NCBI GenBank assembly: GCA_041579295.1
Contig: JBFGGA010000001.1
Coordinates: 2,339-66,338 of the forward strand
Direction: 5' to 3'
DNA length: 64,000 nt
From: Myxococcota bacterium
GTDB taxonomy: Bacteria; Myxococcota_A; UBA9160; SMWR01
Shown here: positions 529 through 46,999 of the stretch, in pieces
Numbering within the stretch: the stretch's first letter is position 1
Layout of the letters: every line of letters starts with the position of its first letter
Program-made: the position numbers and the translations under genes
The notes under the pieces: model-generated
Told to the model about the DNA's origin: nothing
Seen by the model: only the letters and a program-made list of their open reading frames with translations
The model's database searches: none

Positions 529-1929
529 CTAGTCGCTCGCGGGGGGGCTCGCGGATTCCATCGAATCCCGCAACTGCCTCGCCTGCTCGGCGGACGCGAG
601 CCCGCGCGGCGTCGACGGCCCGTAGAGTCGACTCGAGAGGTCCAGGAGCCGCAGCGCCTCGGCTCGCTCTCCATTCGCGAGCATCAGCGCGGCCACGAAG
701 CGCGCGGCGTCCGCGAGGTGTGCGTCGAGCTCCGTGGCGCGCTGGATGCGGAAGGCGGCCTGGTCCGACGAGAGGTCCGGCGCGTGCATCGCCTCCTCGA
801 GCTCGGCGTCGCGGAGGCTGAGGTTGACGCTCAGCGCGGCGCGGTAGGCGGCCACCGTCGCATCCAGGTCGATCCAGGGCAGCACGTTCTCCTCGATGCC
901 ACCAAAGCCGAACGCGCGGCCCCGCAGCGCGCGCACGATCCGCACGTTGGGAGCGTCGAGCGCGAGGGACACGCCCGTCGGGTTCATCAGCGAATCCACG
1001 TCGTCGAGCACGTGGATCGCGCCGTAGAGGTGCAGGATCTCGTGGGCGAGCACGCGGCTTTCGACGGCCTGCTCCGGGACGCGTGCCGCGAGCCCGCGCC
1101 CGAGGAACTCCGCCACCCCCTTCCGGTGGACCGCGTCGCCGCCCGGTAGCGGGCGCCCCGAAATCAGCGCGAAGATCCCGTCGCTCGGCGGGCGCGTCTG
1201 CGCTAGGAATGCCGCGTGGATCGCATCGAGGTCGTTGGGCAGCTCGCCCGCGTCGAACGAGAGGATCGCGATCGGCACGAAGCGGGTCTCGAGCAGCGAA
1301 TCCAGCATCGCGGACGCCGAGAGCCAGAGCGATCGCAGCTGGAACTGCCAGCCGGGCTGCGAGCGATTCCACTCGTCGGCGTGTAGCTCGACGGGGACGA
1401 TGCGGCGCCGCCTCCACGGCTCGCTCACGCCGCGCAGCCGCTGGATCGCCGTCAGCGCCGCGCGCGGATCGAGGTCGGCGAGCCAGACCGCGCGCTCGAG
1501 ATATTCGATGGCCGGATCGGTGCGCCCCGCGTCCGCGAGCGCCTCTCCGGCGGCCAGCAGGGCCTTCGGGTCGTAGGGGTGCTCGAGCGCGCGCAGCACC
1601 GGGTCGCGGATGCCCGAGACGCCGCGGCTGGGGGCGGGGCCGGTGAGCTCGGCGAGGCGCGCGTGCGCGCGCGGATGCGCGCTGTCGCGTTCGATGACCT
1701 GCGCGAGATACGCGTACTCCGCCTCGCGGTTTCCGGCGCGCCGCTGCGCCTCGGCACCGCGGAGCAGCTCGCCGACGATCTTCGCGTCGCTCCGGGCTTC
1801 CGGATCCGCAGCGCGGTTCTGCGACTGCGCGCTCGCGGGATCCGCGGGCGACGGAGACGCCGCCGAGACGGCGGGTGGCGCATTCCCGGTGCACGCGCAC
1901 GCGAGCGCGCCGCCGAGCAGTGCGAGCAT
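529..1929 (-). CDS. Putative exported zinc metalloprotease-like protein (HExxHxxGxxH motif) with TPR-like helical N-terminal half
   Basis: 466-aa non-repetitive translation with ATG verified at 1929. N-terminus MLALLGGALACACTG looks like a short signal or lipobox. HEILHLYGAIH matches the metzincin-type HExxHxxGxxH zinc site. Confidence 0.65.
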   Translation of the reverse strand: MLALLGGALACACTGNAPPAVSAASPSPADPASAQSQNRAADPEARSDAKIVGELLRGAEAQRRAGNREAEYAYLAQVIERDSAHPRAHARLAELTGPAPSRGVSGIRDPVLRALEHPYDPKALLAAGEALADAGRTDPAIEYLERAVWLADLDPRAALTAIQRLRGVSEPWRRRRIVPVELHADEWNRSQPGWQFQLRSLWLSASAMLDSLLETRFVPIAILSFDAGELPNDLDAIHAAFLAQTRPPSDGIFALISGRPLPGGDAVHRKGVAEFLGRGLAARVPEQAVESRVLAHEILHLYGAIHVLDDVDSLMNPTGVSLALDAPNVRIVRALRGRAFGFGGIEENVLPWIDLDATVAAYRAALSVNLSLRDAELEEAMHAPDLSSDQAAFRIQRATELDAHLADAARFVAALMLANGERAEALRLLDLSSRLYGPSTPRGLASAEQARQLRDSMESASPPASD

Positions 1930-5621: not shown

Positions 5622-5894
5622 CTAAATGCCCATGTCGCTGAGCGCGTCCGCCAGGCGACCGATGGTCTCCGTGATCTTCGGGTGGGATTTCTCGAATCTC
5701 TCGAGCGTGTCGGTCAGGCGATCGCGCAGCGAGCCCGACAGCTCCCGCTCGTGGTCGGGATCGAGCGCCTCCAGGATCTCCTGCGCCGCGCCGCGCAGCT
5801 CCGCGCGCAGCGCCTCGTCGAGATCGTCCGGGTCCTCGATCGCCTCGCGCAGCTCGTCGAGGATCTCGCTCAGTGACGGTTCGGGATCCGACAT
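5622..5894 (-). CDS. Small acidic helical protein (DUF4404-like)
   Basis: MSDPEPSLSEILDELREAIEDPDDLDEALRAELRGAAQEILEAL...ERFEKSHPKITETIGRLADALSDMGI. The FE.SHP....l..l...Ls..GI ending recalls DUF4404 (from memory). Confidence 0.55.
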   Translation of the reverse strand: MSDPEPSLSEILDELREAIEDPDDLDEALRAELRGAAQEILEALDPDHERELSGSLRDRLTDTLERFEKSHPKITETIGRLADALSDMGI

Positions 5895-5917
5895 CTCTCC
5901 CCTTCTCCCCATTCAGC

Positions 5918-6955
5918 CTAGACGTTGAATCGAAAGTGAACCACGTCGCCGTCTCGGATCAGGTAATCCTTGCCCTCGACGCGCGCGACCCCGGCCTCGC
6001 GGCACTTGGCCTCGCTGCCGTGCGCGATCAGGTCCCTCCAATCGATGACCTCGGCGCGGATGAACCCGCGCTCGATGTCCGAGTGGATCTTACCCGCTGC
6101 GCGCACCGCCCGGGAGCCGCGCGCGACTGGCCAGGCTCGGCACTCGTCGGGCCCGACGGTCAACATCGAGACGAGATCGATCAGCGCGTAGGCCGCGCGA
6201 ATGAAGCGATGGCGCGCCGGCTCTTCGAGGCCGAGCGACCGGACGAACTCGATCTGCTCCTCCGGGGGCATCGAAGCGATGTCCCGCTCGACCTTCGCGG
6301 AGAGCACCACGACCCCGAGCCCCCTTTCGCGCGCACTCGCCTGGATCGCGGGATCGAGATCGGAGCCGATGCTCGCCTCATCGATGTTGACGACCAGGAG
6401 CAGCGGCTTGCGGGTGAGCAGCGCGTAGCCCGCGATCATCCTCGCCTCTTCGTCGCTGAGGTCGAACGATCGCAGCGGCCGCTCCTGTTCGAGGTGCGCC
6501 TGGATGCGCTGCAGGAGATCGAGCTCGCGCGGGTTGCTTCGATCCTTGGTGAGGCGCGCGACGCGGCGCTCCACCAGCTCGAGGTCCGCGAGGATCGTCT
6601 CGGTCTCCAGCTCGGCGATCTCCCGCAGCGGCTCGGGCGCTTCGCCGGCGGCACCCTCGAACGCCCGCACCACCTGACACAGCGCGTCCACCTCGCGCAT
6701 CGCATTGAGGATCTTGCGATCGAGACCCTGCGCACCGCCTCCACCCAGATCCGTGAAGCTGATCTCCGCGTAGGTGACCTTCTTCGGCTCGTAGAGCTCC
6801 GCGAGCGCATCGACGCGCGCGTCGGGCACCTTGACCACCCCGACGTTGGCCTTCTCGCGGCTGGCCGCGTAACCGGTCTCGACGGCGATGCCCGTGAGGG
6901 CGCCGAATACCGTGCTCTTGCCGCTCCCGGGGAGCCCGACGAGTCCGATCTTCAT
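5918..6955 (-). CDS. ychF: Redox-regulated ribosome-binding ATPase YchF
   Basis: [22 protein letters not shown] (P-loop) and the C-terminal TGS-like end [19 protein letters not shown]. Start at the internal ATG (codon 32 of the track ORF). Confidence 0.95.
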
Positions 6956-14084: not shown

Positions 14085-15185
14085 TCAGCCTTCCGGGGCG
14101 GCCTGCGGGCTGACGTCGCCGACGCCCTGCGAAGCGGGGCCGGCAGGCCCCTCTGGATCGCCGTCCGGAGCGGCCTCGAAGCCGCCTTCCAGCGCACCCT
14201 CTTCGCTGCCCTCCAGCGCGCTCTCCAGGCCGCCCTCCGCGGCGCGCTTGGCGTCGAGCGCGGCCTCCAGGTTGCGCAGGATCTTCAGCGTGTCGTCGCC
14301 CGGGGCCTGGAGGGCCAACTCGTAATGGGCGATCGCGTCGTCCCAGAGCCCGTTCATGTAGTAGACGTAGGCGAGGTTGTTCTCGGCCGCCTGCTCGCTA
14401 CCCGCGGAGCGAAATGCGCTCATCGCCTCCGCGTAGCGGCCCTGTCGACCCAGCGCGATGCCGAGGTTGTTGCGGTAGGCGGGATCTCTCGCCTCCAGGG
14501 AGATCGCCTGGCGAAAAGCCTTCTCCGCGCGCGCCGCATCACCCGCGAGCAGATTGGCGATGCCGTAGTTGTTGACGATCGCGGAGTTCTTCGGCGCCAG
14601 CTCAGCTGCGCGGCCGGCGTGTTCCTGTGCGTCCTGGTAGAGGCGAAGCGCGCCGAGGGCCAGCGCGTAGGCGCCGTGCGCGTCCGCGGATTCCGGATCC
14701 AGCTCGAGCGCCCGCTCGAGATGGCGAGACGCGCCCTCGGGGTCGCCTTGGGCGAGCCGAGCCAGGCCGAGCCCGACGTAGGCCATCGTCGAGGTGGGAT
14801 CGGTCTCGACGATCTTCAGGAAGACCTCTTCCGCCCGCTCGGGCTCGCGAGCGAGCTGCAGGTAGGCGATCCCCGCGTGGGAGCGCGAGTCCGCGGGGTC
14901 CAGCCGGAAGGCCTCGAAGTAGAGCCTCGTCGCCTTTTCGACATCGCCCGCGCGATGCGAGCGCTGTGCGGCGGCGAGGGTCTCGTCGAAGGACGGCGCC
15001 GTCTCCTTTTCGACCTCCGCCACCTCCGCGGCGGCCCGCTCGGCCATGTACTGGCGGTACGCCTCGAGCGAGGTCTCGTTTTCGCTCTGGCCCCAGAGCG
15101 ACGCGCAGCCGGCCAGGCAGAGCCCGATCGCGGTGGCCAGCAGAGAGCGCGCAAGGCGGGCGAGCCGATGAGGTGCAGGTGTCAT
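14085..15185 (-). CDS. tadD: TPR-repeat lipoprotein (TadD-like position and architecture)
   Basis: MTPAPHRLARLARSLLATAIGLCLAGCAS has a lipobox. Multiple TPR units follow (AYVGLGLARLAQGDPEGA..., NNLGIALGRQGRYAEA...). It is the last gene of the Tad locus. Confidence 0.7.
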   Translation of the reverse strand: MTPAPHRLARLARSLLATAIGLCLAGCASLWGQSENETSLEAYRQYMAERAAAEVAEVEKETAPSFDETLAAAQRSHRAGDVEKATRLYFEAFRLDPADSRSHAGIAYLQLAREPERAEEVFLKIVETDPTSTMAYVGLGLARLAQGDPEGASRHLERALELDPESADAHGAYALALGALRLYQDAQEHAGRAAELAPKNSAIVNNYGIANLLAGDAARAEKAFRQAISLEARDPAYRNNLGIALGRQGRYAEAMSAFRSAGSEQAAENNLAYVYYMNGLWDDAIAHYELALQAPGDDTLKILRNLEAALDAKRAAEGGLESALEGSEEGALEGGFEAAPDGDPEGPAGPASQGVGDVSPQAAPEG

Positions 15186-15228
15186 TGCGATCTCATCGGC
15201 AGCCGGTTTTTTGGACTTTACGTCGGCG

Positions 15229-16605
15229 CTATCGGCCGTGGCGCTCGAAGAGATCGGCCGCGAGCGTGAACCCGGAGAGCTTGAGCTTCTCGGCGAACTT
15301 CGGCCGCACGCCGGTCGGCACGATCTCGCCGAGCACGTTCCCCTCCGAGTCGATTCCCCTGCGCTCGAAGGTGAAGATCTCCTGCATCGTGACGATCTCG
15401 CCCTCCATGCCGGTGATCTCCTGCAGGCTCACGAGCTTGCGTCGGCCGTCGCTCAAGCGGGAGAGCTGGACCACCACGTCGATCGCCGACGCGATCTGGC
15501 TGCGCACGGACCGCTGCGGCATGTCGAGTCCCGCCATCGCGACCATCGTCTCCACGCGGCTCAGAGCGTCGCGTGGCGAGTTCGCGTGGACGGTCGTCAG
15601 CGAGCCGTCGTGACCGGTGTTCATCGCCTGCAGCATGTCGAGCGATTCCGCGCCGCGAACCTCGCCGACCACGATGCGGTCTGGTCGCATCCGGAGGCTG
15701 TTGATCACGAGGTCGCGCTGCGCGATGCGCCCGTTGCCCTCGATGTTCGCGGGGCGCGTCTCCAGACGAACGACATGCTCCTGCTTCAGCTGGAGCTCCG
15801 CCGAGTCCTCGATCGTGACGATGCGCTCGCATTCGGGGATGAAGCTCGAGACGACGTTCAGCAGGGTCGTCTTGCCGGCACCCGTTCCACCAGAGATGAG
15901 CACGTTCAAGCGGCACGCGACGACCGCGCGCAGGAGCTCGACGATCTCGAGTGTGAGGGCCCCGTTTTCGACGAGGTCATCGACCGTCAATGGATCGGCG
16001 CCGAAGCGTCGAATCGAAACCGAAGGGCCGTCGAGGGCGAGCGGTGGAATGATCACGTTGACGCGAGATCCGTCGGCAAGTCTCGCATCGACGAGCGGCG
16101 ACGATTCGTCGATCCGCCGCCCCACGGCGGAGACTATCTTGTCGATGATGCGCATCAGATGCGCGTCGTCCCTGAAGCGGGCGACCGTCTTCTCCAGTTT
16201 TCCGCGTCGCTCGATGTAGATGTCGTTGCAGCCATTGACCAGGATGTCCGAGATCGTCGGATCCTGGAGCAGCGGTTCGAGCGGCCCGAGGCCGAACACT
16301 TCGTGCTGGATCTCCTTCACGAAGCGCTCCCGTTCCTCCAGCGTCAGGAGGAATTTCTCCTCTTCGAGAATCTGAACCGTTGCCGTCGCGATGTCCGAGC
16401 AGACCTGCTCTTCGCTGACGGACGAGATCCGGCCGAAGTCGATCACGTCGAACAGCCGATTGTGGACCCGCGACTTCAGATCCTGGTACAGCGCATCGCG
16501 AGCGGGGGGCGCCGAGCTGCGCTTTCCGTTCTTCGGCTGCGCGGCGGGCGCCGTGGACTTGGCGGGTGCGGGGCTGGAGCCCTTGAGTCGATCAAGCAGA
16601 GCCAC
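15229..16605 (-). CDS. tadA: Tad pilus secretion ATPase TadA/CpaF
   Basis: Walker [15 protein letters not shown], a [11 protein letters not shown] Asp box, Walker B/His box [14 protein letters not shown]...[17 protein letters not shown] 16605 sits 7 nt after AGGAGG; the ORF upstream of it overlaps tadZ. Confidence 0.95.
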
Positions 16606-17797
16606 GTGAGGACCTCCTGGAGAACACGCCGCGGAAGCGACGGGCGATGCCGCGAGCCGGCTCGGCCTGCGGAGCATCGACGCCGCACCACGCGTAGACA
16701 TCGAGCGCGAGCTTTCGATAGGCCTCGCAGATTGCGCTGCCACGGGATATCTGCCCGATCGGCCTCCCCTGGTTGACGCTTTCCGCCGTCGTCGCATAGT
16801 CGTTGGGAATGAGCGCATCGGGCTCGCTTCCCAGGACACGCTTGAAGTCGCTGACGGTGATCGCGCCGCCCTTCGAATGGCGATTGCCGACCGTGCGGAC
16901 CCGAGAGCCGTCGAGTGCGAGCCCTTCGAGCAGCTTCTTGTGCTGGCGCGCGTGGTTGAGCGTCGGGACGTCGAAGAGGGTCACCAACAGTATCTGGTCG
17001 GCGATGCTCAATGCCTGGACGCTCGCTTCGTTCCAGCTGCGGGAGACGTCCACCAACACCCAGTCGAAACCGGATCTCAGGATCGGAAGCACGCGCTCGA
17101 CATGGACGCCGTGAATGCCCTCGGCCTCCTCCATCTGCGTGGGCCCCGCGAGGATCTGTACCCCGCTGTCGTGCCCCTTGAGAATCGTTCGGATGTAGGT
17201 CGCGTCGAGCTCCTGCTCGGCGCGGGCGAGATCGGCCAACGTGTAGGTGGGGTCCACGTCGTAGTGAAGCGCGACGTCTCCGAGTGGATAGTTGAGGTCG
17301 ACGATCACGGTGCGGCCGCCGAGTTCCTGAAGCGAGGCGGCGAGCTGGCAGGCCAGGACGGTCGCACCGACACCCCCCTTGGTTCCCATCACCGCCACGA
17401 CTCGGCCCGCCCCCGTAGCGGAAATCGGGGTGGCGCTGCGTACGAGCTCGACGATGACCGAGTGCAGCTCCTCCTCCGCGGGCGCCGTCGGAAAGAAGTG
17501 CTTCACACCCAGGTGCATGGCGCGCAGAATCAGCGAGCTCTCGGTGTGAGGTCCCGATACCACCGTTAGAGGGAGTCCGCTGTGCAACGACTCCAGCAGA
17601 TCCAGCACTACGTGCGGCGCGTGGCCGAGATCAGCGAAGAGGCCATCGGGCTTCTCGGACTTGAGCACGCCGAGAAGCTGATCGGGGTCGCCGACCACCG
17701 TGGCGACGCGCGCCTCCCCGCTGGCCCCGATCTGCCGCTCGATCTCGGCGGCGAATTCGGGCTCTTCCGAGAAGATGACGAACGAAAACATGTTCAA
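16592..17797 (-). CDS. tadZ: TadZ/CpaE: receiver-like N-domain plus MinD/ParA-type ATPase
   Basis: N-terminal pseudo-receiver ([15 protein letters not shown]...), then [24 protein letters not shown] (deviant Walker A) and a ParA-like core. Confidence 0.85.
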
Positions 17798-17875
17798 ACC
17801 CCTGTCCGCTGCCCATCGAAGACGCGGGCCGATGCACGCAAATCTCCGATCCTCGTTCCAGACCCCGGCGGCCGA

Positions 17876-18169
17876 TCAGTTGGCGTCGATCTGGATGATC
17901 GACGGCATCTGCACGGGTGCCGGCTGGCTCTGCTTCTCGAAGTAGCGATCCATCACCACGGCGGCGGTGTCCGGATCGATCGTGGGAGCATCGGCGTTCT
18001 CGTAGACCGCATTCGGATTCTCGGTCTGCGTGACGGTATTCTCGAAAACCGCCTCACCCATGTGCTGGTCCACCCAGGAGGGACCCATCGGAGTCATCGA
18101 TTCACAGCCAATCAGCATGGCGATACCGGCGATGGCGGCAGCCAGGCTTCCCAGTCGCAGCGTTCTCAT
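17876..18169 (-). CDS. Small lipoprotein coupled to the secretin gene (RcpB/CpaD/pilotin position)
   Basis: ATG 18169 overlaps the secretin stop (ATGA). MRTLRLGSLAAAIAGIAMLIGCES has a lipobox. 97 aa with no recognisable family. Confidence 0.6.
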   Translation of the reverse strand: MRTLRLGSLAAAIAGIAMLIGCESMTPMGPSWVDQHMGEAVFENTVTQTENPNAVYENADAPTIDPDTAAVVMDRYFEKQSQPAPVQMPSIIQIDAN

Positions 18170-19650
18170 TGAAGACCTCCCTCGAACGTAGTGGTGACGC
18201 GGTGACCGGTGTCGCCGATCAACCCTTCGGTGTCGAACTGGCCGAGCAATTCGCCCTCCGCGGGCTCGGGCGGCATGCCCTCGAGAGCCCCCCACAGGAA
18301 GAACTCGAGCGCGCTCGGCTCGACGAAGTGATCGGTGGGAAGCGGATGCGGGCCCGGACCCAGCGGCTTGACGAGCGTCGGCGTAACGATGATGACGAGC
18401 TCGGTCTCATCCTTCAGGAACTGAGTGCTGCGGAACAGCGCACCGAGAATCGGAAGGTCGCCCAGCAGCGGATACTTGCCCGCAATCTCGCGGACCTCCT
18501 CGCTCAAGAGGCCGGCGATCATGAAGCTCTGTCCATCCGCGAGCTCGATGCTCGTCGACGCCCGCCGGCTCGCGAAGCCGGGAACCAGCGTTCCGGACAC
18601 CTCGGTTCCAAACGTGAAGTCCGCGCGGCTGACCTCGGGATTGACCACGAGGTGGATTCGATCCGGGCCGAGGACCGTGGGCGTGAACGAGAGACCCACG
18701 CCGAAATCCTTGTACTCGACGGTGATCGAGCCGAACGCGCCACCCTGTGCGACGGGAATCGGCACCTCGCCTCCCACCAGGAAGCTCGCCGACTCGCCGC
18801 TTCTCGCCACGAGCGTGGGCTCGGCGAGGATCTTGCTGAGCCCCTGCTCGTCGAGCAGATCCAGGAAGACCTCGAGCGCCTCGAGCGCGCCGAATCCGGT
18901 GAATGAGCCGAAGATATTGGCCATGCTGTTCGCCAAGCTACCACCGCCCGGAGAGACCAGGGTCCCGACGAAGCTACCGATCCCGACCTGGCCGCTGCCG
19001 GCCGTGATCAGCGCCGCGAAGTTCGTCCCGAACTCCCGATTCAGGGAGCGCGACATTTCCGCAACGATGACCTTGAGCATGACCTGGTGGTTGCCACCGA
19101 CCTCGATCAGATTGACGATTCGCGCAGCGTCGCCCTTCTCTCCGACCATTCCGTGGGCAAGCTTCAGGGCTTGATCGAGCAGCACGCTGCTGGAGACGCT
19201 TCCCCTGAGGATGACCGCGTTTCCGGCTCCCTCCACTGAAATCGTGTCGCTGTTCAGGTAGCGCCGCAGCGACCGCTCGATGTGCGCGTAGGCGGTGCCG
19301 ACGTCGACCTGGATGACGGCCTGCGGCCTGCCCCTGTCGTTCCAGAGCAGCACGTTCGTCACGCCAATGCCCTTGGCGACGAGCTGCAGGTCCTTGGGCC
19401 CGAGCGCCACCACGTCGACGAAGTCGGGATTGCCGATCGAAATCCGTTTCACGGTGTAGGCGGTGTTGAGGCTGATCGACTTGCCTATTTCGATCTGCAG
19501 ATCGTGCACTCGTTCCTGCTCGCTGAGCGGAACCGCAAGGCGGATCGAACCGTGATCGGGACTCAGCGTCGCGGCAGAGCTCGTAGAGACGATTCCGGAC
19601 ATCGAGAGCGTCCAGAGCGCAATGCCTGACCAAATCAGGATCCGCATCAT
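18166..19650 (-). CDS. rcpA: Tad pilus secretin RcpA/CpaC
   Basis: Signal peptide MMRILIWSGIALWTLSMSGIVSTSSAA at the internal ATG 19650. BON-like and secretin-N regions, then the C-terminal secretin core (...PLLGDLPILGALFRS...ELVIIVTPTLV). Confidence 0.9.
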   Translation of the reverse strand: MMRILIWSGIALWTLSMSGIVSTSSAATLSPDHGSIRLAVPLSEQERVHDLQIEIGKSISLNTAYTVKRISIGNPDFVDVVALGPKDLQLVAKGIGVTNVLLWNDRGRPQAVIQVDVGTAYAHIERSLRRYLNSDTISVEGAGNAVILRGSVSSSVLLDQALKLAHGMVGEKGDAARIVNLIEVGGNHQVMLKVIVAEMSRSLNREFGTNFAALITAGSGQVGIGSFVGTLVSPGGGSLANSMANIFGSFTGFGALEALEVFLDLLDEQGLSKILAEPTLVARSGESASFLVGGEVPIPVAQGGAFGSITVEYKDFGVGLSFTPTVLGPDRIHLVVNPEVSRADFTFGTEVSGTLVPGFASRRASTSIELADGQSFMIAGLLSEEVREIAGKYPLLGDLPILGALFRSTQFLKDETELVIIVTPTLVKPLGPGPHPLPTDHFVEPSALEFFLWGALEGMPPEPAEGELLGQFDTEGLIGDTGHRVTTTFEGGLQ

Positions 19651-19813
19651 CCATCCGACGCTCTCGGAGTGCCTACTCGGTGTCGTGTAGAGTATCAACA
19701 TGCCGATCTCCTGATTTGCAGCGTCCATCATGTAATGCCATTGCCTCGTTGCTTCGCTCTTTACCGAGATCACGATGAACCCGGAGCAGCAGTAACGCGG
19801 CGATCGTCCTAAG

Positions 19814-19829
19814 AGCAAGGGGCGTGCCA
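19814..19829 (-). promoter_or_regulatory. Sigma-54 (-24/-12) promoter upstream of the secretin gene
   Basis: Minus strand reads ccTGGCACGCCCCTTGCTct, a full match to TGGCACG-N4-TTGCW with GG and GC at the canonical spacing. It lies 164 nt upstream of ATG 19650. Confidence 0.65.
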
Positions 19830-19972
19830 GGCGGGATTTGCCGATGGCTCGTCGAGGAGAAAAGAGCGGAGTCTCGGCTTGCTTCGCGGGCAACTGCTCG
19901 TAGATGAAGCGCCGAATAACCGCATTCTCGATCGGATCTGATGTAGGCCACTACCCAAGACTCCCCTCCGGG

Positions 19973-20007
19973 ACACAGGCCTGAATTTTCTTGCGGCCCT
20001 CGGGGAA
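19973..20007 (-). promoter_or_regulatory. 35-bp conserved upstream element (candidate enhancer/UAS), copy 2
   Basis: Minus strand TTCCCCGAGGGCCGCAAGAAAATTCAGGCCTGTGT is 31/35 identical to 25646-25680. It lies exactly 143 nt upstream of the sigma-54 promoter, as in the other copy. Confidence 0.55.
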
Positions 20008-20155: not shown

Positions 20156-21070
20156 CTATTGGTTGCTGAGCGCGCTCAGCATCATGTAGGCGCCGGGTGC
20201 GATGAAGATCACGAGCAGCGCGGTGAAGATCATCGTGCTCGGAAGGATCAGCTTGAGGGTGGCCTTCTGGGCGCGCTCCTCGGCGCGCTGCATGCGGACG
20301 ACGCGCATCGAATCGGCGTGCACGCGGAGGGCATTCGCGAGGCTCGTCCCGAAACGCTCGGTCTGAACCAGAAGCGCCACGAGCGAGCTGATGTCCGAAA
20401 CTCCGGTTCGATCGGCCAGCGCCCGCAAGGCCTCGGTGGTGCTCTTGCCGGCGCGCGTCTCCTCGACCACCAGCGAGAACTCCTTCGCGATGATCGGGCA
20501 CTTGGATGCGAATTCGTCCGAGACCTGCGCGAGGCTCTGATTGATCCCGAAGCCGGCTTCGACGCAGACGACCATCAGATCCAGCGCGTCGGGGAGCGCT
20601 CGAACGAGCTCGCGCTGACGCGATTTGATTCGGCTGTCCAGGGCGATGCTGGGAAAGACGTAGAAGATCGCAGACAACACGATCAGCATCCCTAACTGAA
20701 CCACAGAGGGCAGAGCCCAGAAGCCCGGCAGCAACGCGACGATCGCCGGACCGCCGATCGCGAGCGTGGGCCGGACCCCATAGAAGATCATCGGAGCCGA
20801 GGGTCGCCGGTAGCCCGCGCGAACCAGGCGAGACCGGAGGCGCGAGGCGTCCGCACCCTCTCGCCCGCGTCCGATCCGGGCGAGGAGCCCCGACCAACCC
20901 TTCTCCTGGCCGTGCATGAGGGACCGGCCCGCAAACTCGGTGGGTCGCTGCTTCGGGCCGAGGTGCGCGAGCCGGCGGCCGATGGCGCGGGGCCCGAGCA
21001 TCGCGCGGATCGCGAGCACCAGCATGATGACAGAACCGAAGACGAGCGCAGGAATCGCAAAATCCACCAT
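20156..21070 (-). CDS. tadC: Tad pilus inner-membrane platform protein TadC (T2SS-F family)
   Basis: 304 aa: N-terminal TM, a cytoplasmic helical T2SSF domain (LPDALDLMVVCVEAGFGINQSL), and C-terminal TM helices. Confidence 0.85.
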   Translation of the reverse strand: MVDFAIPALVFGSVIMLVLAIRAMLGPRAIGRRLAHLGPKQRPTEFAGRSLMHGQEKGWSGLLARIGRGREGADASRLRSRLVRAGYRRPSAPMIFYGVRPTLAIGGPAIVALLPGFWALPSVVQLGMLIVLSAIFYVFPSIALDSRIKSRQRELVRALPDALDLMVVCVEAGFGINQSLAQVSDEFASKCPIIAKEFSLVVEETRAGKSTTEALRALADRTGVSDISSLVALLVQTERFGTSLANALRVHADSMRVVRMQRAEERAQKATLKLILPSTMIFTALLVIFIAPGAYMMLSALSNQ

Positions 21071-21079
21071 CTCGACCTC

Positions 21080-22015
21080 TCAGGCTTCCACGTCTGCAAT
21101 ACGCAGCGCCATGAAGTAAGCCAGCCCGTCGAGCGCAAAGGCGCTCGCCAGCGTGAAGTGCCCCCAACGGTGCTCGAAGAGCGGGCCGATGTAATCGGGT
21201 GCGACCATCCAGACGAGACAGATGATGGCCGGCAGCCACAGCGCGAGGAAGGTTGCGGCTCCACGCCCTTGCGCGGTGAGCGCGCGTACGCGCCCCTTGA
21301 ACTGCGAGCGCTCGCGGAGGAGCGTACTGAGCCGATCGAGGAGCTCCGCGAGGTTGCCGCCGGTCTGGCGTTGGATCAGCACCGCGGTGGTCAGATACGG
21401 GAGGTTCTCGTTGTCGATCCGACGCATCAGATTGCCGAGTGCATCGCGCAGCTCCAGGCCGAGCCGCACCTCTTCCGCGACGACGCCGAACTCCGTCGCG
21501 ATCGGATCGGCGAGCTCCTCGCCCACCATCTGGAAACCCGCAACCAACGAGTGTCCGCTGCGCATCGAACGCGTGACGAGCTCCAGCGCGCTCGCGAGCT
21601 GCGCGTCGAAGGCGCGCATGCGCTTTCTCGCGCGCGAGCGGGCCCAGAGCAGTGGGAGAAGGCCCGTGACGACCGCGGGCGCGGCTCGAAACGAATCCTG
21701 CGTCAGCACGAAGACGCCCAGGAAGCCGATCGTCGCAAACGCCGCCGAGACGGCGAGGAAATGGCGGACACCCATCAGGCTGCCTGCCCGGTAGAGCAGC
21801 AACTCGAGCTCGAGCAGCCTGCGGATGTGCGAGCTTCCGCGGCGCCGCAGAATCGACTCGCCATTGCTGATTTCGACGCTCCCGACGCGCGACGCCAGGT
21901 TGCTGAGCCGGCTCTTCACGCGGGCCGGATCCCTGCGCCGGCCGAAGAGCTCGAAGATCCCTTCGAGCGCGAGAAGCGCCCCTACGAAGACGAATACGAA
22001 GACCATGAATTGCAT
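21080..22015 (-). CDS. tadB: Tad pilus inner-membrane platform protein TadB (T2SS-F family)
   Basis: ATG 22015 verified (MQFMVFVFVFVGALLALEG). T2SSF domain (LASALELVTRSMRSGHSLVAGF) and two C-terminal TM helices. Confidence 0.85.
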   Translation of the reverse strand: MQFMVFVFVFVGALLALEGIFELFGRRRDPARVKSRLSNLASRVGSVEISNGESILRRRGSSHIRRLLELELLLYRAGSLMGVRHFLAVSAAFATIGFLGVFVLTQDSFRAAPAVVTGLLPLLWARSRARKRMRAFDAQLASALELVTRSMRSGHSLVAGFQMVGEELADPIATEFGVVAEEVRLGLELRDALGNLMRRIDNENLPYLTTAVLIQRQTGGNLAELLDRLSTLLRERSQFKGRVRALTAQGRGAATFLALWLPAIICLVWMVAPDYIGPLFEHRWGHFTLASAFALDGLAYFMALRIADVEA

Positions 22016-22024
22016 TTGCGATCC

Positions 22025-23173
22025 CTAGTTCACGATGACGGGGTAATCGGCCGAGATGCTGCCGGCGATCGACCCGCCCGGACCAAATCCGGTGGTGTCA
22101 CAGCGCGGATCCGTCGAGCAGATGAAGTTTCCCTTGATGAGCTTGTCCGGCGTGACGATGATCTCGCGGATGTCCATGCACAGGAAGCCCACGATGTACT
22201 GTCGATCGCCGCTTGCGCACTGATCGCCGGGATTCTGGCACTCGATGATCGGGAGCGTGACGACCCAAGAGTCCGCGACGCCGTCGCCGTTCGTGTCGCT
22301 TCCCTCGGCATCGAAGCGGTCCTTGATGTCCTGGACGACCGGGGTCTTGGTTCCGTTGTCGATGTAGATCGGCTCGTCACCGATCGTGCCCGAGTTGCCG
22401 TCCTGGACGATCTGCGTCATGTCCGGCACGCTCACCGAGGGGCTGTCGCTGTCGAAGGCCGTCCAGCAGGCGTTCTGCTCAGGCGTCGAGAAGAACTCGA
22501 GGCAGCTCACCGTCTCGCCCGTGGAAAGCGGACACGGATTCGGAATGCTGTTGTTGACGAACTGGCAGTAGTTCTCCGAGCACGTGGCGCCCGCCCGGTT
22601 TCCCGACACCGCGCAGCAATCGATCGCGATCGGTAGATCAGCAGTGCCGGGGCCGCCGCTTCCCGCGAAGCCCCATTCGGCAACCGCGTCGGTATTCACG
22701 TTGATCGAGCCCACGCCCAGGGCGCGTCCCAGAATCGTGTCGATCGGCCCGTTCGCGGTGGCGTCGCGGCGCGCCACGACGCGAACCGCGCGCACGACGT
22801 TGGGGTCGGTGTTGCCCGGCAGCGCCGTGAAGGCCTGCGCGGCCATGTCCCAGCTCCCGACCTCGACGTCCGCCGCAGCGATCGTGAGATTCATTCCGAG
22901 CGCCTCGTGCTCGGCCCCGTACGTCGCCGCAGCGGTGCGGGCGCTCCCCTCGTCCACCGTCTGGAAGTCGGGCGAGAAGAGATTTCCGACGCCCGCGAGC
23001 GCGGCCGAGTCGGCAGCCGCCTGCAGCTGGCTCTTCGCCTGCCACGCGCGTCCGGTCTCGGTCGACCACGCCGCGAAGCCCACCAGAGCTGCGAGCGCGA
23101 TCGTCACGAAGACCAGGACCGAACCCTTTTCACGCCCGTTCTCGATTGTGCTCGGTCTTCGTCGGTCCTTCAT
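22025..23173 (-). CDS. tadG: TadG-like pseudopilin/pilus-associated protein with Cys-rich C-terminal domain
   Basis: MKDRRRPSTIENGREKGSVLVFVTIALAALVGFAAWSTETGRAWQAKSQLQAAADSAALAG matches the Tad_N/TadG N-terminal pattern. The C-terminal 200 aa contain about 12 Cys. Confidence 0.75.
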   Translation of the reverse strand: MKDRRRPSTIENGREKGSVLVFVTIALAALVGFAAWSTETGRAWQAKSQLQAAADSAALAGVGNLFSPDFQTVDEGSARTAAATYGAEHEALGMNLTIAAADVEVGSWDMAAQAFTALPGNTDPNVVRAVRVVARRDATANGPIDTILGRALGVGSINVNTDAVAEWGFAGSGGPGTADLPIAIDCCAVSGNRAGATCSENYCQFVNNSIPNPCPLSTGETVSCLEFFSTPEQNACWTAFDSDSPSVSVPDMTQIVQDGNSGTIGDEPIYIDNGTKTPVVQDIKDRFDAEGSDTNGDGVADSWVVTLPIIECQNPGDQCASGDRQYIVGFLCMDIREIIVTPDKLIKGNFICSTDPRCDTTGFGPGGSIAGSISADYPVIVN

Positions 23174-23248
23174 CGCGATTCCCAAATGTGATTCGATCCG
23201 CTTGCGGTTCCCATGCGACCGGAGCCGGCGTGAACGCCGGCTCTCCGA

Positions 23249-24070
23249 TCAGAACTTCTTGACCTCCACCTCGGTCCCGCGAATGATCTTCACCCGGTTG
23301 CTGCGGGGAGCCGACGCCACGACCTGCTTCGCGGTCGGCTTCGTGGAGGCGATTCGACCTTCGAGCACGTCCGCGACTCCGATGCTCCGGGTCGCGACTT
23401 CGGCGTCGTCGCCCGGCGAGCGCAGCGCGAGCTGGAGCCGCCCTTCGTGAGCTGCGTAGATCAGGTGCTCGGCCTGCTGGGGGGTCACCTCGAGCGTCAC
23501 GACGTTGACGAGCTCCGGCTCGCCGTTCTTGACCTCTTCGAGCTTTTGGTCGACTGCGAGCACGCGAACGTCCTGCAGAATGACCTTGGAGAACGGAATC
23601 GCGCGCTCCAGATCCACGCGGCGAATGGTTGCCATCACGTCCACGCGAGAGCCGGGTACCACGAAGCCCGCCACGCCGATCACGTTGTCGACCTTGACCG
23701 ACACTGCCCGGAAGTCGTCGCTGATCACGGCGCCGAGCCCGCCGGCCGCGCCGGTCTGGTACAGCGCTGCCTCGAGGACGGCCTCGCCCTGCGCGAGCGG
23801 CCGTCGCGTGATGCGATTCTCTACCTTCTCGATCGAGCGCAGCGCGCCCATCGGAACGTGCTCGCTCGGCCAATCCACCAGCTTGAGCTGCGCGCGCGTG
23901 AGGCTCGACGCGACGGGCACGTCCGACCGCACCACCACCACGGGCGTCGTCTTCACCGCGCTAACGCTGGCCTCGGCCGGCACGGCACCGAACTTCGTCG
24001 TGATCCAGGCCGCACCGAGGCCCATGATCACTGCCAAGCCTAGAAAAATCAGTCCACGTCGATTCTGCAT
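23249..24070 (-). CDS. cpaB: Flp pilus assembly protein CpaB/RcpC
   Basis: MQNRRGLIFLGLAVIMGLGAAWITTKF is an N-terminal anchor. A SAF-like region and an RcpC beta-domain follow (VVTLEVTPQQAEHLIYAAHEGRLQLALR). Confidence 0.85.
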   Translation of the reverse strand: MQNRRGLIFLGLAVIMGLGAAWITTKFGAVPAEASVSAVKTTPVVVVRSDVPVASSLTRAQLKLVDWPSEHVPMGALRSIEKVENRITRRPLAQGEAVLEAALYQTGAAGGLGAVISDDFRAVSVKVDNVIGVAGFVVPGSRVDVMATIRRVDLERAIPFSKVILQDVRVLAVDQKLEEVKNGEPELVNVVTLEVTPQQAEHLIYAAHEGRLQLALRSPGDDAEVATRSIGVADVLEGRIASTKPTAKQVVASAPRSNRVKIIRGTEVEVKKF

Positions 24071-24099
24071 GGGTTTCTCCTTTCGAATCCTTTGGCGAA

Positions 24100-24534
24100 T
24101 TACTCGTTACGCATCACGGAGCGAGCGGTCAGGTTCGTGCTCGGTGCCAGACCGGCGAGGGCAGAGAGCGCCACGTAGTCGTAGGGAACGCTCGCGGTCA
24201 CGACGAGCTGCGTGCCCGTGCCGAGGCAGGCCCCGGTTACGGTCGTGCTGATGTTCGCGGGGTCGATGCCTGAGCTGTCCGCGAAGTCGGAAACCGTGGT
24301 CTCGACCAGCGTGGTCACCGTCGCGGCGTCACACGGCGCGCGGAAGACCACGCCCGTGCGCGCGCCCTCGCGAACGGCGTTGGTCAGGCTGTTCCAGCGC
24401 GTGAACGAAACGCCGAACTCGGCGATCGCGAACACGAGCAGGAGCAGCAGCGGGAGCACGATCGTCGCCTCGACGATGGAAGTGCCGGCTCGAGTTCGGT
24501 GCGCGCGCGCTGCCGGATCGATTCGCTTCACCAC
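24100..24534 (-). CDS. tadE: TadE-like pseudopilin
   Basis: GTSIVEATIVLPLLLLLVFAIAEFG is the TadE N-terminal motif. GTG starts at 24534/24531 overlap the tadV stop (GTGA). The track ORF begins at TTG 24552. Confidence 0.8.
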   Translation of the reverse strand: MVKRIDPAARAHRTRAGTSIVEATIVLPLLLLLVFAIAEFGVSFTRWNSLTNAVREGARTGVVFRAPCDAATVTTLVETTVSDFADSSGIDPANISTTVTGACLGTGTQLVVTASVPYDYVALSALAGLAPSTNLTARSVMRNE

Positions 24535-25172
24535 GGGGAACCCCCATACCAATGCGCGGCGAGGCCGATCGCGATGGCCACCGCGAACGGGATGCCGCCC
24601 GACGCGACCGACCCTTCAGCGGGGCGCTCGTAGCCGACGCGACGGAGGGTCAGCAAGCGCCAGAGCATCCGGCACCAGCGGCGGGCGAAGGGGGCCAGCT
24701 GTCCGCGCAGCGCGAGCAGCGTCAAGCCGAACGCGCCACCCGCGATCACCGCCCAGACGGCGGTGCCGAGCGTCGCTACGGGGCCGAGCCAGGCGCCGAG
24801 CGCCATCAAAGCCTTCACGTCGCCGGCGCCCATGCCCCCGAGCGCGTAGGGCCCCACGAGCAGCGCAAAACCCAACGCCGCACCCGCTGCCGCTTCGAGC
24901 GGCCCGCTCGTCGCGCCGGCCCAGGGCGAGGCGAGCAGCGCGGCCAACAGCGCGGGCAGCGTGAGCCAATTGGGAATCCGGTGGAAGCGCAGATCGCTCG
25001 CCACCGCAAAAACGAGAAAGGCCGCTGCCCATCCGAAGACGGGCAGCGGCGTCGAACCCATGAGCCCGGCGCCGACCAGCAACATCCCAAGACCGAGTGC
25101 GACGCTCCATGCAAGGAATGCAGGGCGTACCTCGGGGAGGGCGCGACTGATCGAAATTGTGTCGGTGCTCAT
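24528..25172 (-). CDS. tadV: A24-family prepilin peptidase TadV/CpaA
   Basis: Polytopic, 214 aa. The first catalytic Asp is in VASDLRFHRIPN and the second in GGMGAGDVKALMALGAWLG. Confidence 0.85.
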   Translation of the reverse strand: MSTDTISISRALPEVRPAFLAWSVALGLGMLLVGAGLMGSTPLPVFGWAAAFLVFAVASDLRFHRIPNWLTLPALLAALLASPWAGATSGPLEAAAGAALGFALLVGPYALGGMGAGDVKALMALGAWLGPVATLGTAVWAVIAGGAFGLTLLALRGQLAPFARRWCRMLWRLLTLRRVGYERPAEGSVASGGIPFAVAIAIGLAAHWYGGSPW

Positions 25173-25199
25173 GATTGCTCCAATATCCCGAGGAGACCT

Positions 25200-25373
25200 T
25201 TACGGGATCTGGGCAGTCTGGGCGCTGAGCGACGTGATGCCGCGCAGCACGTCTCCGCCGATCGTGACGAAGAGCACCGCAGAGCCGGCCACGATGATGC
25301 CGCCGACGATGGCCCACTCGACGGTCTCGAGACCGCTTTCGTCCAGCATGAACTTCTTGATCTGGTTCAGCAT
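25200..25373 (-). CDS. flp: Flp-family type IVc pilin (57 aa; below the ORF-track cut-off)
   Basis: Hand translation of the minus strand gives MLNQIKKFMLDESGLETVEWAIVGGIIVAGSAVLFVTIGGDVLRGITSLSAQTAQIP*. It carries the Flp motif G/xxxxE-aromatic (G-LETVEW) and a hydrophobic core. AGGAG sits 8 nt upstream of the ATG, and the gene lies directly upstream of tadV. Confidence 0.85.
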   Translation of the reverse strand: MLNQIKKFMLDESGLETVEWAIVGGIIVAGSAVLFVTIGGDVLRGITSLSAQTAQIP

Positions 25374-25407
25374 TCTCAACTCCTAACCATCTCTGTTCGA
25401 ACACTCC

Positions 25408-25431
25408 TGCAACCGTGACGTCACGGCTGCA
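25408..25431 (-). promoter_or_regulatory. 24-bp near-perfect palindrome in the predicted flp leader
   Basis: TGCAACCGTGACGTCACGGCTGCA (one mismatch) with a perfect 14-bp core CCGTGACGTCACGG at 25413-25426. It lies 35-58 nt upstream of the flp ATG and downstream of the sigma-54 promoter. Confidence 0.4.
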
Positions 25432-25486
25432 GATGGGCTTCGGGCGGAGCCCTCGGCCCGGCCCCACTCGGGGCGCTGGTCCCAGG

Positions 25487-25502
25487 AGCAAAGCCTGTGC
25501 CA
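25487..25502 (-). promoter_or_regulatory. Sigma-54 (-24/-12) promoter upstream of flp
   Basis: Minus strand reads cgctTGGCACAGGCTTTGCTcc, with GG and GC at the canonical spacing of TGGCACG-N4-TTGCW. It lies 114 nt upstream of the flp ATG. Confidence 0.65.
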
Positions 25503-25645
25503 AGCGCGGGGAACGAGAGCGGCGGCCTGCGAAAACACACACGGGTTCGCGCAGATGCGCGAGCTCGCACACATCGGTGATCGCCGGCGACTCACGTCGA
25601 GGTGCCGCCCGGCGGTAGAGAAGCGGCCAACGAGTCAGGATCAGT

Positions 25646-25680
25646 ACACAGGCCTGCAATTTCTTGCGGCCCCAGGGGAA
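25646..25680 (-). promoter_or_regulatory. 35-bp conserved upstream element (candidate enhancer/UAS), copy 1
   Basis: Minus strand TTCCCCTGGGGCCGCAAGAAATTGCAGGCCTGTGT lies 143 nt upstream of the flp sigma-54 promoter. It is 31/35 identical to 19973-20007. Confidence 0.55.
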
Positions 25681-25808
25681 CACGGGCCGCGGCGAGTTGC
25701 ACCCCCGCGGCGGGCGGGCTGCGCACTCGCGAGCGAGCGAACTGAAAGGCGTTCGATCGTGAAGGGCCTCCAATCTTGGTTGGAGCTCGATCCCGAAGCG
25801 GTTCCAAA

Positions 25809-25842
25809 CGCGAAAGCGCTTCGATCGCGAAAGCGCTTCGAT
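25809..25842. repeat. Perfect 17-bp tandem duplication (CGCGAAAGCGCTTCGAT x2), each copy containing the palindrome AAGCGCTT
   Basis: Read directly: 25809-25825 is identical to 25826-25842. It lies 35 nt downstream of the msrB stop. Confidence 0.85.
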
Positions 25843-25876
25843 CGGAGGGTCCGGCCGGAGGCGAGGAGATCGGCCG

Positions 25877-26269: not shown

Positions 26270-26640
26270 CCGCTCTCCAGCCGGTCGTCCGCCCCCCGCG
26301 CCGCTCCCGCTGGCCGACCTTCCGCCGGCTCGCCCATCGCTCGCGTCGTCCGTCACCCCGCCCTCCGACTTCGCCCCGCGCCCCTCTCGCGATCCGAGGG
26401 ACCCGTCACGCGCTCGACCGCCTGGGCGCGCGCGCCGTCGACCGCGCCGGATCGGAGCATAACACGCGGAAACACCCCCAGGGGGTGGCCCCCGTCGGCG
26501 CCGACGACCCGCGCCGGGCAAATTCGATACGCTCTGTGATGAATTGAATACCGCGCCTCCGCGCGGCGTCCAATTCTCGGAATTGTGCCAACCACTAGGG
26601 GAAGATCAGGAGGAACCAGACGGTCGATGGTCCCACAGCC

Positions 26641-44808: not shown

Positions 44809-46788
44809 TCAGCGGCGCAGTAGGCGTCCGATGAGCCCCTTCGATTTCTTCCGCCTGAGATTGATCAGGCGAAGCTCGCGCAGCGCCTCCACGCAACCCG
44901 GCTCGAGTTGCACGGCCCGCGCAAACATCTTTTCCGCCAGCTCGACCCGTCCGATGGCCTTGCATAGGCGACCCATGTAGAGGTAGGACGTCTCGCGTTG
45001 CCCCGCCAGCTTGATCCCGCGGCGGACGTGCTCGATCGCCTCGGACGCGATGTCGGGCTGATCGGGGTGGCAGAGGTGGAGCGTCCAGCCGTAGTGGGAG
45101 TGGTACTCCCCGGCTTCCGGATAGAGTTCCAGGGCGCGTCCGAAGGCCTGGAGCGCGCGCTCGTAGGCGCGCTGCGCCAACAGCCGCTGGCCCTCCTGGA
45201 ACTGCACCTCGGCCTCCAGCGCCTTTTCGCTCTCCCGGCGGCGCTCCGCGTCGCGCTCGCCCTTGCGCTGGTTGAGCACGTACTCGCTGCGCCGGCGCGG
45301 ATCGGCGAGCGTCTGGTAGGCGGTGTTGAGCTGCGCGAACACTTCGGTGGCCAGGTGGGCGACCGCATCGCCGGTCTTCCGGTAGCGGTCGGGATGCAGG
45401 ATCGCGGCGCGCTTCTCGAATGCGGCCCGGAGCTCCTGCTCCGTCGTCGATTCGTCGACGCCGAGAATCTCGAAGTAGTTCTGCTTGCGCATGCGGTCCG
45501 CGAGGGCGGTCAATCGGGCGCGCACCTCCTCGCCCTTGGCCGTGGGCTGCGTTCGCGCATCGCGGGCAGGCCGCGGTGCGGCGGCCGCGCGCTTGCGACC
45601 TCCCTCGAGCTCGAGCAGGCCGAAGGCCAGGATCGCGTAGAGCGTGCGCTTGAGATCCTCGTCGGCTTTCAGGAACTCGGCCAGTCGCTGGGTCCCGTCG
45701 ACGCTCGCGAGAAGCTCTTCGTGCTTGGGATCCAGATCGACCTCTTGAAACTGGTAGAAGGGGCTCTCCGCGGGCGTCAGATAGCAGTCCGCGTGCGAGC
45801 CGATGTACTTGTCGATCATCTCGATCGGAGCGTACTCGCGCACGCCCCGTAGGATCAGGTTGGCGGGGCTTCGCTCCACGCCGAGGCTGTTGCCGCGTTC
45901 GAGGCCGGCGCCGCGCTCGAAGCGATACTTTCCGGTTCGCCAACGGAACGCCTCGAAGAGCTTTTCGTCGGCCTGCGCGCGCAGCGCGTCCGCGATCTCC
46001 TCCTCGGAGACGATCTCCATCGCCACGAGGATCTCGCCCTGCAAGCGCCCGGGCTTGACCCGGCGGCGCGACTCGGCGAAGGCCGCCTGGCTGATCTTGC
46101 CGCGGCGCACGAGGAGGTTGCCCAGACACTCGTTGAGGAGGTTGGAACGAACCGCGGTCGGGTAGCCGTCCCGAAGCGCAATCCACTTGCGCTTCTTCCC
46201 GTTCGAGAGGTGCAACACGCCCGTCGCGCGAAGCCCGTGAAGGTGGTGGAGCAGCGCGGGAAGCGGCAGCTCGTCGAGCGAGCCCGACAAACCCGCGGGT
46301 CGGGGCTCGACAAGACGGGGCGGCGGCTCGCTGTGGCGAACGTCCTCGGTCTTGCGCTCGCCCGCGTAGCGCGCGACCACGTCCAGCAGCTCGTCGAGCG
46401 GCACGGGTTTGGTGAGCAGCTCCACCACGCCGAGCGCCTTCGCGCGCTCGCGATTCTGCGGGGTCGGCGAGCAGCCGGTGATCAGCACGACCGGCGTGTC
46501 GCGCGAAGCAGAGTCCATCGCGCGCAGCGCCTCGAGGACCGCGAATCCATCCCTTCGCGGCAGGATCAGGTCGAGCAGCGCGATGTCGGGGGGGTGCTCG
46601 CTCAGCTCGACGAGCGCTTGATCGCCGTCGAAGGCGGTGCGCACCGCGTACCCCTCCTCGCCGAGGGTCTCGGAGAGGATCCGGCAGAAGTCGCGATCGT
46701 CATCGACGCAGAGGACGGAGCTCGGACTGTCCCTCACAGGGGGAATATCGGATGGCGCGAAATCGGCCTTGAGGGGAATTCCACTCAT
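44809..46788 (-). CDS. Response-regulator receiver - DUF4388 - J-domain - TPR multidomain protein
   Basis: Receiver: VLCVDDDRDF...IALLDLILPRRDG...LTKP. DUF4388-like: LPLPALLHHLHGLRATGVLHLSNGKKRKWIALRDGYP. J-domain: QNYFEILGVDESTTEQELRAAFEKRAAILHPDRY. C-terminal TPRs. Start is ATG 46788 (MSGIPLK...). Confidence 0.8.
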   Translation of the reverse strand: MSGIPLKADFAPSDIPPVRDSPSSVLCVDDDRDFCRILSETLGEEGYAVRTAFDGDQALVELSEHPPDIALLDLILPRRDGFAVLEALRAMDSASRDTPVVLITGCSPTPQNRERAKALGVVELLTKPVPLDELLDVVARYAGERKTEDVRHSEPPPRLVEPRPAGLSGSLDELPLPALLHHLHGLRATGVLHLSNGKKRKWIALRDGYPTAVRSNLLNECLGNLLVRRGKISQAAFAESRRRVKPGRLQGEILVAMEIVSEEEIADALRAQADEKLFEAFRWRTGKYRFERGAGLERGNSLGVERSPANLILRGVREYAPIEMIDKYIGSHADCYLTPAESPFYQFQEVDLDPKHEELLASVDGTQRLAEFLKADEDLKRTLYAILAFGLLELEGGRKRAAAAPRPARDARTQPTAKGEEVRARLTALADRMRKQNYFEILGVDESTTEQELRAAFEKRAAILHPDRYRKTGDAVAHLATEVFAQLNTAYQTLADPRRRSEYVLNQRKGERDAERRRESEKALEAEVQFQEGQRLLAQRAYERALQAFGRALELYPEAGEYHSHYGWTLHLCHPDQPDIASEAIEHVRRGIKLAGQRETSYLYMGRLCKAIGRVELAEKMFARAVQLEPGCVEALRELRLINLRRKKSKGLIGRLLRR

Positions 46789-46999
46789 CTGCGCACTGCT
46801 GAACCCTCGTGCCTCTCTCCGCTCCATCCTGCTGGGGTGCGGTGGGGGGAGGAGGGTCCGCGCCCGGGCAGACCCTGGTCGGTGGCGCCCGCATTTCACC
46901 AGCCGGGGCCCAGTTGGCCGGGTCGCGCTCGATTGGAGCGAGCGGCCCTCCCCCTCCCCCCGGCTCCCCCAGGCTCCGCGTCGTATCTGGAGGCCCGGC

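Follow-up and report, generated by a model that had tools for sequence, protein, structure and literature searches.

A conserved dyad element at fixed distance from sigma-54 promoter sequences precedes both Tad/Flp pilus operons of an uncultured Myxococcota bacterium

The two operons that encode a Tad/Flp pilus in an uncultured Myxococcota bacterium are each preceded by a perfect sigma-54 promoter consensus and, 143 nt further upstream, by a copy of a 35-bp element that contains an imperfect 22-bp dyad. In the reading that we consider probable, an unlinked AAA+ enhancer-binding protein (bEBP) would act at the dyad to activate both Tad operons from these sigma-54 promoters. The first-pass annotation had taken the element to be the UAS of an unlinked bEBP, and this proposal is supported by the present data, in that the element forms an island of conservation, includes a dyad, is held at a rigid distance from the promoter and recurs at several unlinked sigma-54 promoters.

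GC3-guided calling of open reading frames, combined with Pfam searches, placed the Tad/Flp pilus genes of the window (the whole 64-kb stretch of DNA that was analysed) in two operons on the minus strand. The first starts with flp (25200..25373, ATG at 25373), which encodes a 57-aa Flp-type prepilin with a DESG/LETVEW motif, and its remainder (20156..25172, assigned from Pfam and synteny) comprises the genes for the prepilin peptidase CpaA/TadV (24528-25172, Pfam Peptidase_A24), TadE (24100-24552, TadE), CpaB/RcpC (23249-24070, RcpC), a TadG-like protein (22025-23185, Tad), TadB (21080-22015, T2SSF) and TadC (20156-21070, T2SSF). The second operon, cpaC-orf97-tadZ-cpaF-tadD (14085..19701, also from Pfam and synteny), encodes the 511-aa secretin CpaC/RcpA (18166-19701, ATG at 19701; Secretin and T2SS-T3SS_pil_N), a 97-aa ORF (17876-18169), TadZ/CpaE (16592-17797; CBP_BcsQ/AAA_31), the ATPase CpaF/TadA (15229-16839; T2SSE) and a TPR protein resembling TadD (14085-15185; TPR). 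An AGGAG Shine-Dalgarno sequence is present at both flp and cpaC, and the gene upstream of flp, on the same strand, is msrB (SelR). Despite its classical DESG/xExxEW processing motif, the flp product has no matching Pfam or NCBIfam family, even at permissive thresholds; the gene was called from the prepilin motif, as read from the sequence, and from its position directly before the prepilin peptidase gene.

Perfect matches to TGGCAC-N5-TTGCW occur twice in the 64-kb window, compared with no occurrence in 100 dinucleotide-preserving shuffles. P_flp, at 25502..25487 on the minus strand (TGGCAC-AGGCT-TTGCT; TGGCACAGGCTTTGCT), has its GG at 25501-25500 and its GC at 25489-25488 and ends 114 nt before the ATG of flp; every coordinate given for it in the first-pass annotation was correct. 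The second consensus promoter reported there, with the same element 143 nt upstream, was likewise confirmed, and its target, a point absent from that annotation, is cpaC. This promoter, P_cpaC (19829..19814, minus strand; TGGCAC-GCCCC-TTGCT; TGGCACGCCCCTTGCT), is kept in relatives and ends 113 nt before the ATG. The predicted transcription start sites lie at about 25476-25477 for P_flp and about 19803 for P_cpaC. A 16-mer identical to that of P_flp precedes flp in four orthologous loci (L092, L094, L100 and L110), and across 20 copies of the module the 16-nt consensus is perfect, with an extended -12 region, TTGCTCnTAGGAC. These data support the two sites as genuine sigma-54 promoters, from which we infer that transcription depends upon RpoN. 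The rpoN gene itself is absent from the window, and was met only in the locus of a distant relative (L099).

Copy 1 of the upstream element, the proposed UAS of P_flp, occupies 25680..25646 on the minus strand, and copy 2, the proposed UAS of P_cpaC, occupies 20007..19973 on the same strand. The two are identical at 31 of 35 positions and are separated from their promoters by gaps of equal length (25645..25503 and 19972..19830), with the result that the spacing from element to element equals that from promoter to promoter, at 5673 nt. The element at P_flp and its near-identical copy at cpaC are therefore as first described, and lie far beyond chance expectation. A search that allowed up to three mismatches to the conserved core revealed no third copy in the window, with none in 100 shuffles either.

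Within copy 1, the imperfect 22-bp dyad (GGGCCGCAAGAAATTGCAGGCC, 25672..25651) has the core CCGCAA-N4-TTGCAG at 25669..25654 and is conserved in orthologs, with seven of nine arm pairs kept. The corresponding frame in copy 2 (19999..19978) keeps five of nine and has a degenerate right arm, ATTCAG. The dyad centre is situated approximately 186 bp upstream of the predicted start site in both copies, at the far end of the 80-200 bp range that is usual for bEBP sites, and approximately 167.5 bp from the -24/-12 centre, which by coordinate arithmetic, with 10.5 bp to the helical turn, comes to about 16.0 turns. The element thus shows the attributes of a UAS with respect to location 80-200 bp upstream, dyad symmetry and occurrence as a site common to several sigma-54 promoters. 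Many bEBPs use two or more sites; here there is one clear dyad per promoter.

Syntenic loci were gathered by a metagenome scan, by look-ups of exact proteins and by a pattern scan of a genome collection. Contigs from several near-identical MAGs at NCBI carry a gene for exactly the same Flp protein, and the secretin has homologs of 55-89% identity from metagenomes, the few named sources of which are Myxococcota or Deltaproteobacteria. More distant homolog loci (L020-L090, 30-40% identity), most of them without the module, were left out of further comparison. About ten related MAG lineages (Myxococcota/"Deltaproteobacteria"), with secretins 65-80% identical to that of the window, have the module at flp and cpaC. 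Promoter and element together precede cpaC in L017, L018, L019, L091, L092, L094, L100, L103 and L106, and flp in L092, L094, L100, L110 and L096. Two pairs of these Tad-locus contigs, L103/L110 and L096/L108, are labelled 'uncultured Spirochaetales' and 'uncultured Opitutales', respectively, despite synteny of the Myxococcota type, which suggests mis-binning or mislabelling.

Comparison of flp-type with cpaC-type copies in the 20-copy alignment gave identities of 0.79 for the element and 0.73 for the promoter, as against 0.38 for the spacer and 0.23 for the 60 nt that precede the element. All 20 copies have CGCAA and TGGCAC 164-168 nt apart, most of them at 166 nt, a rigidity of spacer length that fits face-of-helix constraints. 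The distance of the module from the preceding gene is variable, with extremes of about 60 and 200 nt. In two loci of one lineage a gene for isoprenylcysteine carboxyl methyltransferase (ICMT) is inserted between tadC and the cpaC module (L094, 7808..8431; L095, 8982..9605); since the module has stayed beside cpaC in both, it evidently keeps with the promoter rather than with the upstream gene.

The scan of the genome collection, which demanded element and promoter together, returned 17 stretches, about eight of which look like chance matches (unrelated taxa, no tad context); the remainder belong to this clade. Among the latter, the module was found before an unlinked gene for a 117-aa exported protein in L113, another contig of the MAG that contains L092, and in L116, which comes from a further MAG. 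The gene lies at 5644..5997 on the minus strand of L113, downstream of an ABC permease gene, and the module match in L116 lies at 737..915, also on the minus strand. This protein has no Pfam or NCBIfam family, and no homolog in the window. Additionally, L110 has a second flp paralog (VRNQIKKFMQDESGLETVEW...) with a complete module of its own at 1066..1247; the paralog starts about 140 nt past this module, which is located about 3 kb upstream of the main flp module. The spread of the module to flp, cpaC, an flp paralog and the unlinked 117-aa gene is regulon-like behaviour.

Alignment of the relatives refines the motif. The dyad consensus is a 22-bp GGnCCGCAA-N4-TTGCGGnCC, of which the full archetype is near-perfect in L100, L110 and L096; the inner CCGCAA-N4-TTGCGG is perfect in L100, L110 and the first flp copy of L096 (the second reads TCGCAAA-TT-TTTGCGA), and the right arm is degenerate at all cpaC copies. 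The bases that are invariant across 18 copies can be written CGCAA-AAA-T-C---CCTGT, and since the most invariant of the bases (CGCAAnAAA ... CCTGT) are asymmetric, recognition may not be purely dyadic. The sub-blocks singled out in the first-pass annotation fared unequally. The palindrome CAGGCCTG was not upheld, as relatives have CAGACCTG, CGGACCTG, CATGCCTG or CGCGCCTG in its place and the invariant part is CCTGT(G). The TTCCCC block is kept at the tad promoters but is absent at the third target, the 117-aa gene, which retains CGCAAnAAAnTTC...CCTGTGTACC of the element. Larger symmetries, namely TCCCC...GGGGA and CACAG...CTGTG, were considered and rejected: they occur in many cpaC-type copies only, and since they are missing from flp-type and third-type copies they are not part of a shared code.

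Conservation extends beyond the 35 bp, as further blocks are found in the spacer. In the 143-nt spacer of P_flp (25645..25503, minus strand) the 20-copy alignment identifies GACTC at 25636..25632, which reads GGAGTC in most copies, GATCACCGATGTG at 25582..25570 and GTGTGTTTTC at 25540..25531. Expressed as consensus, these are GGAGTC, which follows CCTGTG at a distance of about 10 nt, and yTCAnCGATGnGCA and GTGTTTT, which precede TGGCAC by about 80 and about 40 nt, respectively. All three are kept across flp, cpaC and third-target copies; they are weaker than the element, and partly type-specific. Such blocks may bind the same protein as the element or additional ones. No convincing IHF site was found, the best matches to the consensus WATCAANNNNTTR scoring 5-8 of 9 and lying at inconsistent positions.

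Downstream of P_flp, the 5' leader of flp (about 103 nt, 25476..25374, minus strand) has three predicted hairpins that are conserved (25473..25462, 25459..25435 and 25433..25406), beyond which lies the Shine-Dalgarno AGGAG at 25384..25380. Alignment of six flp-type leaders gives 25 consensus pairs in these hairpins, six of them with compensatory double changes. The third hairpin, with a 12-bp stem around GTGACGTCAC, stands about 25 nt upstream of the Shine-Dalgarno sequence. The hairpins may serve as an mRNA stabiliser, or as a translational control element for the pilin.

The spacer blocks bear on the question of what binds where. It could feasibly be that the promoters are sigma-54 promoters but that the 35-bp element binds another type of protein (a repressor, a co-activator, a nucleoid-associated or bending protein, or a c-di-GMP-responsive factor), with the true bEBP site at another place, such as the conserved blocks at about -80 or -130 from TGGCAC. 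The presence of GGAGTC, yTCAnCGATGnGCA and GTGTTTT as several additional conserved blocks, the occurrence of a single dyad only, with asymmetric invariant bases, and a second dyad, CCTG-N7-CAGG, that adjoins the element in cpaC-type copies would all accord with such an arrangement. We nevertheless regard it as unlikely, given that the element is the best-conserved block by far across all three target types, and that a UAS would be expected to have just such a position, dyad symmetry and phase-locked spacing.

A dispersed REP-like or mobile repeat, or the relic of a duplicated promoter cassette, would have no regulatory role, and the two copies in the window with their promoters do resemble a duplicated cassette, being spaced equally at 5673 nt. 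However, the element is 79% identical between paralogous sites where the flanks are 23-38% identical, its spacing has been kept in about ten lineages, and it has no hairpin potential of the kind typical of REPs. Moreover, a profile HMM of the element, run without filters on the window and all loci collected (about 0.9 Mb), recovered no additional copy in the window even at E<=10, and only promoter-linked copies in the window plus about 200 kb of clade DNA. The possibility of a REP-like repeat, raised in the first-pass annotation as a refuting outcome, is therefore disposed of for the window and this clade DNA; beyond these the genome-wide scan covered only copies adjoining promoters, where the repeat reading is less firmly countered. 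Overall, an origin as an inert repeat or relic is thought very improbable.

It is more doubtful still that the element is a transcribed RNA feature, whether the 3' end or terminator of msrB or tadC or a small RNA. Both copies do follow a gene on the same strand, 197 nt after msrB and 149 nt after tadC, and there is a weak terminator-like match at 25553..25538. The alifold consensus of 18 copies, however, amounts to only -1.0 kcal/mol, with a compensatory change at one of seven pairs and in a single sequence, the element matches no Rfam family, and it keeps with its promoter when the upstream gene differs (ICMT in L094, another gene in L096, an ABC permease gene in L113). The terminator candidate at 25553..25538 was rejected, as it overlaps the conserved T-run but its hairpin is not conserved. 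The Rfam scan of 19000-26800 returned only a sub-threshold match to the Xanthomonas sRNA sX9 (20270..20334, minus strand; 30.4 bits against a gathering threshold of 44), which lies inside the tadC coding region and is most likely due to chance. Equally hard to credit is that the -24/-12 matches go unused while transcription starts at another promoter, of sigma-70 or ECF type, that escaped recognition. A scan confined to the E. coli-type sigma-70 consensus, which would miss other Myxococcota types, found no such promoter in either intergenic region; the perfect 16-nt consensus in 20 copies, the extended -12 region TTGCTCnTAGGAC and the null result in 100 shuffles speak against this reading.

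The first-pass annotation also held that the window encodes no bEBP, and a scan for GAFTGA and Walker-A motifs agreed on this with a tblastn search in which the query was a full NtrC-type bEBP from the chance locus L114. No sigma-54-activator domain was detected by either approach in the window or in the loci of relatives, with flanks of up to 10 kb per side. The only match in cis was a receiver domain at 46716..46354, which was discounted, being part of a REC-DnaJ protein and not of an activator. This 696-aa protein (44809..46899, minus strand) has an N-terminal receiver domain and a DnaJ J-domain, an unusual architecture for a response regulator. Since a bEBP gene is lacking both from the window and from these flanks, the activator is at present hypothetical.

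The closed complex of the sigma-54 holoenzyme cannot open unaided; it requires an AAA+ bEBP bound upstream, together with DNA looping. Applied to the present case, each Tad operon would be driven by its own sigma-54 (RpoN) promoter, and a dimer-based AAA+ bEBP encoded elsewhere in the genome would bind the dyad GGnCCGCAA-N4-TTGCGGnCC within the 35-bp element. The bound protein would then oligomerise and touch the promoter-bound holoenzyme via a DNA loop over the fixed 143-bp spacer, and hydrolysis of ATP by the bEBP would open the promoter. Since the same site stands at the same distance in both operons, the two would be switched jointly, such that one signal would turn on pilin, peptidase, platform, secretin and ATPase together; in relatives, the extra flp paralog and the small exported protein would join the same co-induction.

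Tad loci of more distant relatives have -24/-12-like promoters approximately 100 nt before flp (L098, 7680; L099, 7728; the second locus of L096, 7652), with upstream dyads that differ from the one described here, being GGGTGCCG-N8-CGGCACCC in L099 and a tandem TCCCCTGCnGCAAG in L098. The combination of such promoters with other upstream dyads suggests that flp came under sigma-54 control before the enhancer described here arose; such control may be widespread in the group, with the enhancers diverging.

Control of pili by sigma-54 and bEBPs is already established, including that of Flp/Tad pili in Desulfovibrio, and the general picture is unchanged by the present analysis. In Desulfovibrio vulgaris Hildenborough, Flp-type pilin and Tad genes are controlled by DVU2114, a two-component response regulator that is sigma-54 dependent, whose own gene adjoins its pilin targets and whose binding was shown by DAP-chip (PMC3333781; PMC4641369). 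The two cases are alike in that sigma-54 promoters with an upstream EBP site, here a proposed one, stand before Flp-type pilin and Tad genes, in that more than one operon is concerned, and in that the motif is confined to a narrow group of relatives. They differ in that no EBP gene is found here in the 64-kb window, or within up to 10 kb per side in relatives, and in that the present case is a prediction from sequence; moreover, current taxonomy places the two organisms in different phyla. PilS/PilR and sigma-54 control type IVa pilin genes in Pseudomonas aeruginosa, Myxococcus xanthus (pilA) and Geobacter, according to the work cited in PMC3333781, and these systems share with the present one a pilin gene with a -24/-12 promoter and an NtrC-family bEBP upstream, the latter being a proposed one here. 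In the PilS/PilR systems, however, the pili are type IVa, the regulator genes usually lie beside pilA and the pilin gene alone is sigma-54 dependent, whereas here the pilus is of the Tad type (type IVc), and both the pilin operon and the secretin/ATPase operon have the same module.

With respect to the enhancer, Escherichia coli AtoC, an NtrC-family bEBP, binds upstream of atoDAEB at a pair of inverted 20-bp sites that together span 40 bp (PMC3118216). Both cases comprise a dyad site above a sigma-54 promoter, and the layout of the published AtoC motifs, with GC-rich arms and an A+T-rich centre, is loosely reminiscent of the present one, but the similarity in sequence is superficial and the analogy is one of architecture as opposed to relatedness. 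The ftr enhancer of Caulobacter FlbD, CCCGGCA-N5-TGCCGGG, is common to many sigma-54 flagellar promoters, as summarised in PMC3333781, and is similarly a palindromic enhancer found across the sigma-54 promoters of one surface-appendage regulon; the motif and the appendage are different, and the regulator of the FlbD system is known. Myxococcota are rich in EBPs (PMC12316311). Our literature search found no work on sigma-54 control of Kil/Tad in Myxococcus, and no published description of the present dyad motif. What appears to be new in comparison with these systems, then, is that the predicted activator is unlinked, that the pilin and secretin/ATPase operons have the same module, and that the motif is apparently undescribed. 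Taken as a whole, the result is a well-founded cis-regulatory prediction, solid but fairly ordinary.

A wider reading, to which we would give an even chance, is that a self-contained cassette of about 300 bp, consisting of the 22-bp dyad enhancer, the length-locked 143-bp spacer with its conserved putative protein-binding blocks and the sigma-54 promoter, with the three-hairpin leader in addition at flp, has been copied to at least three or four unlinked operons in an uncultivated Myxococcota clade, and marks out the genes under an orphan bEBP whose recognition motif is undescribed. If so, the whole Tad machine and a small secreted protein would constitute a single on/off unit gated by one signal. 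The Kil pili of Myxococcus are Tad-like and are tied to surface or prey contact, and the gating might possibly be tied to such contact here also. For uncultured Myxococcota, the analysis provides a concrete regulatory model of Tad pilus expression, with two promoters, a 22-bp operator, predicted transcription starts and a minimal regulon, and a motif that can be used as bait for the cognate activator. It would also indicate that sigma-54 control reaches beyond the pilin gene, to the structural and the secretin/ATPase operons of the Tad system.
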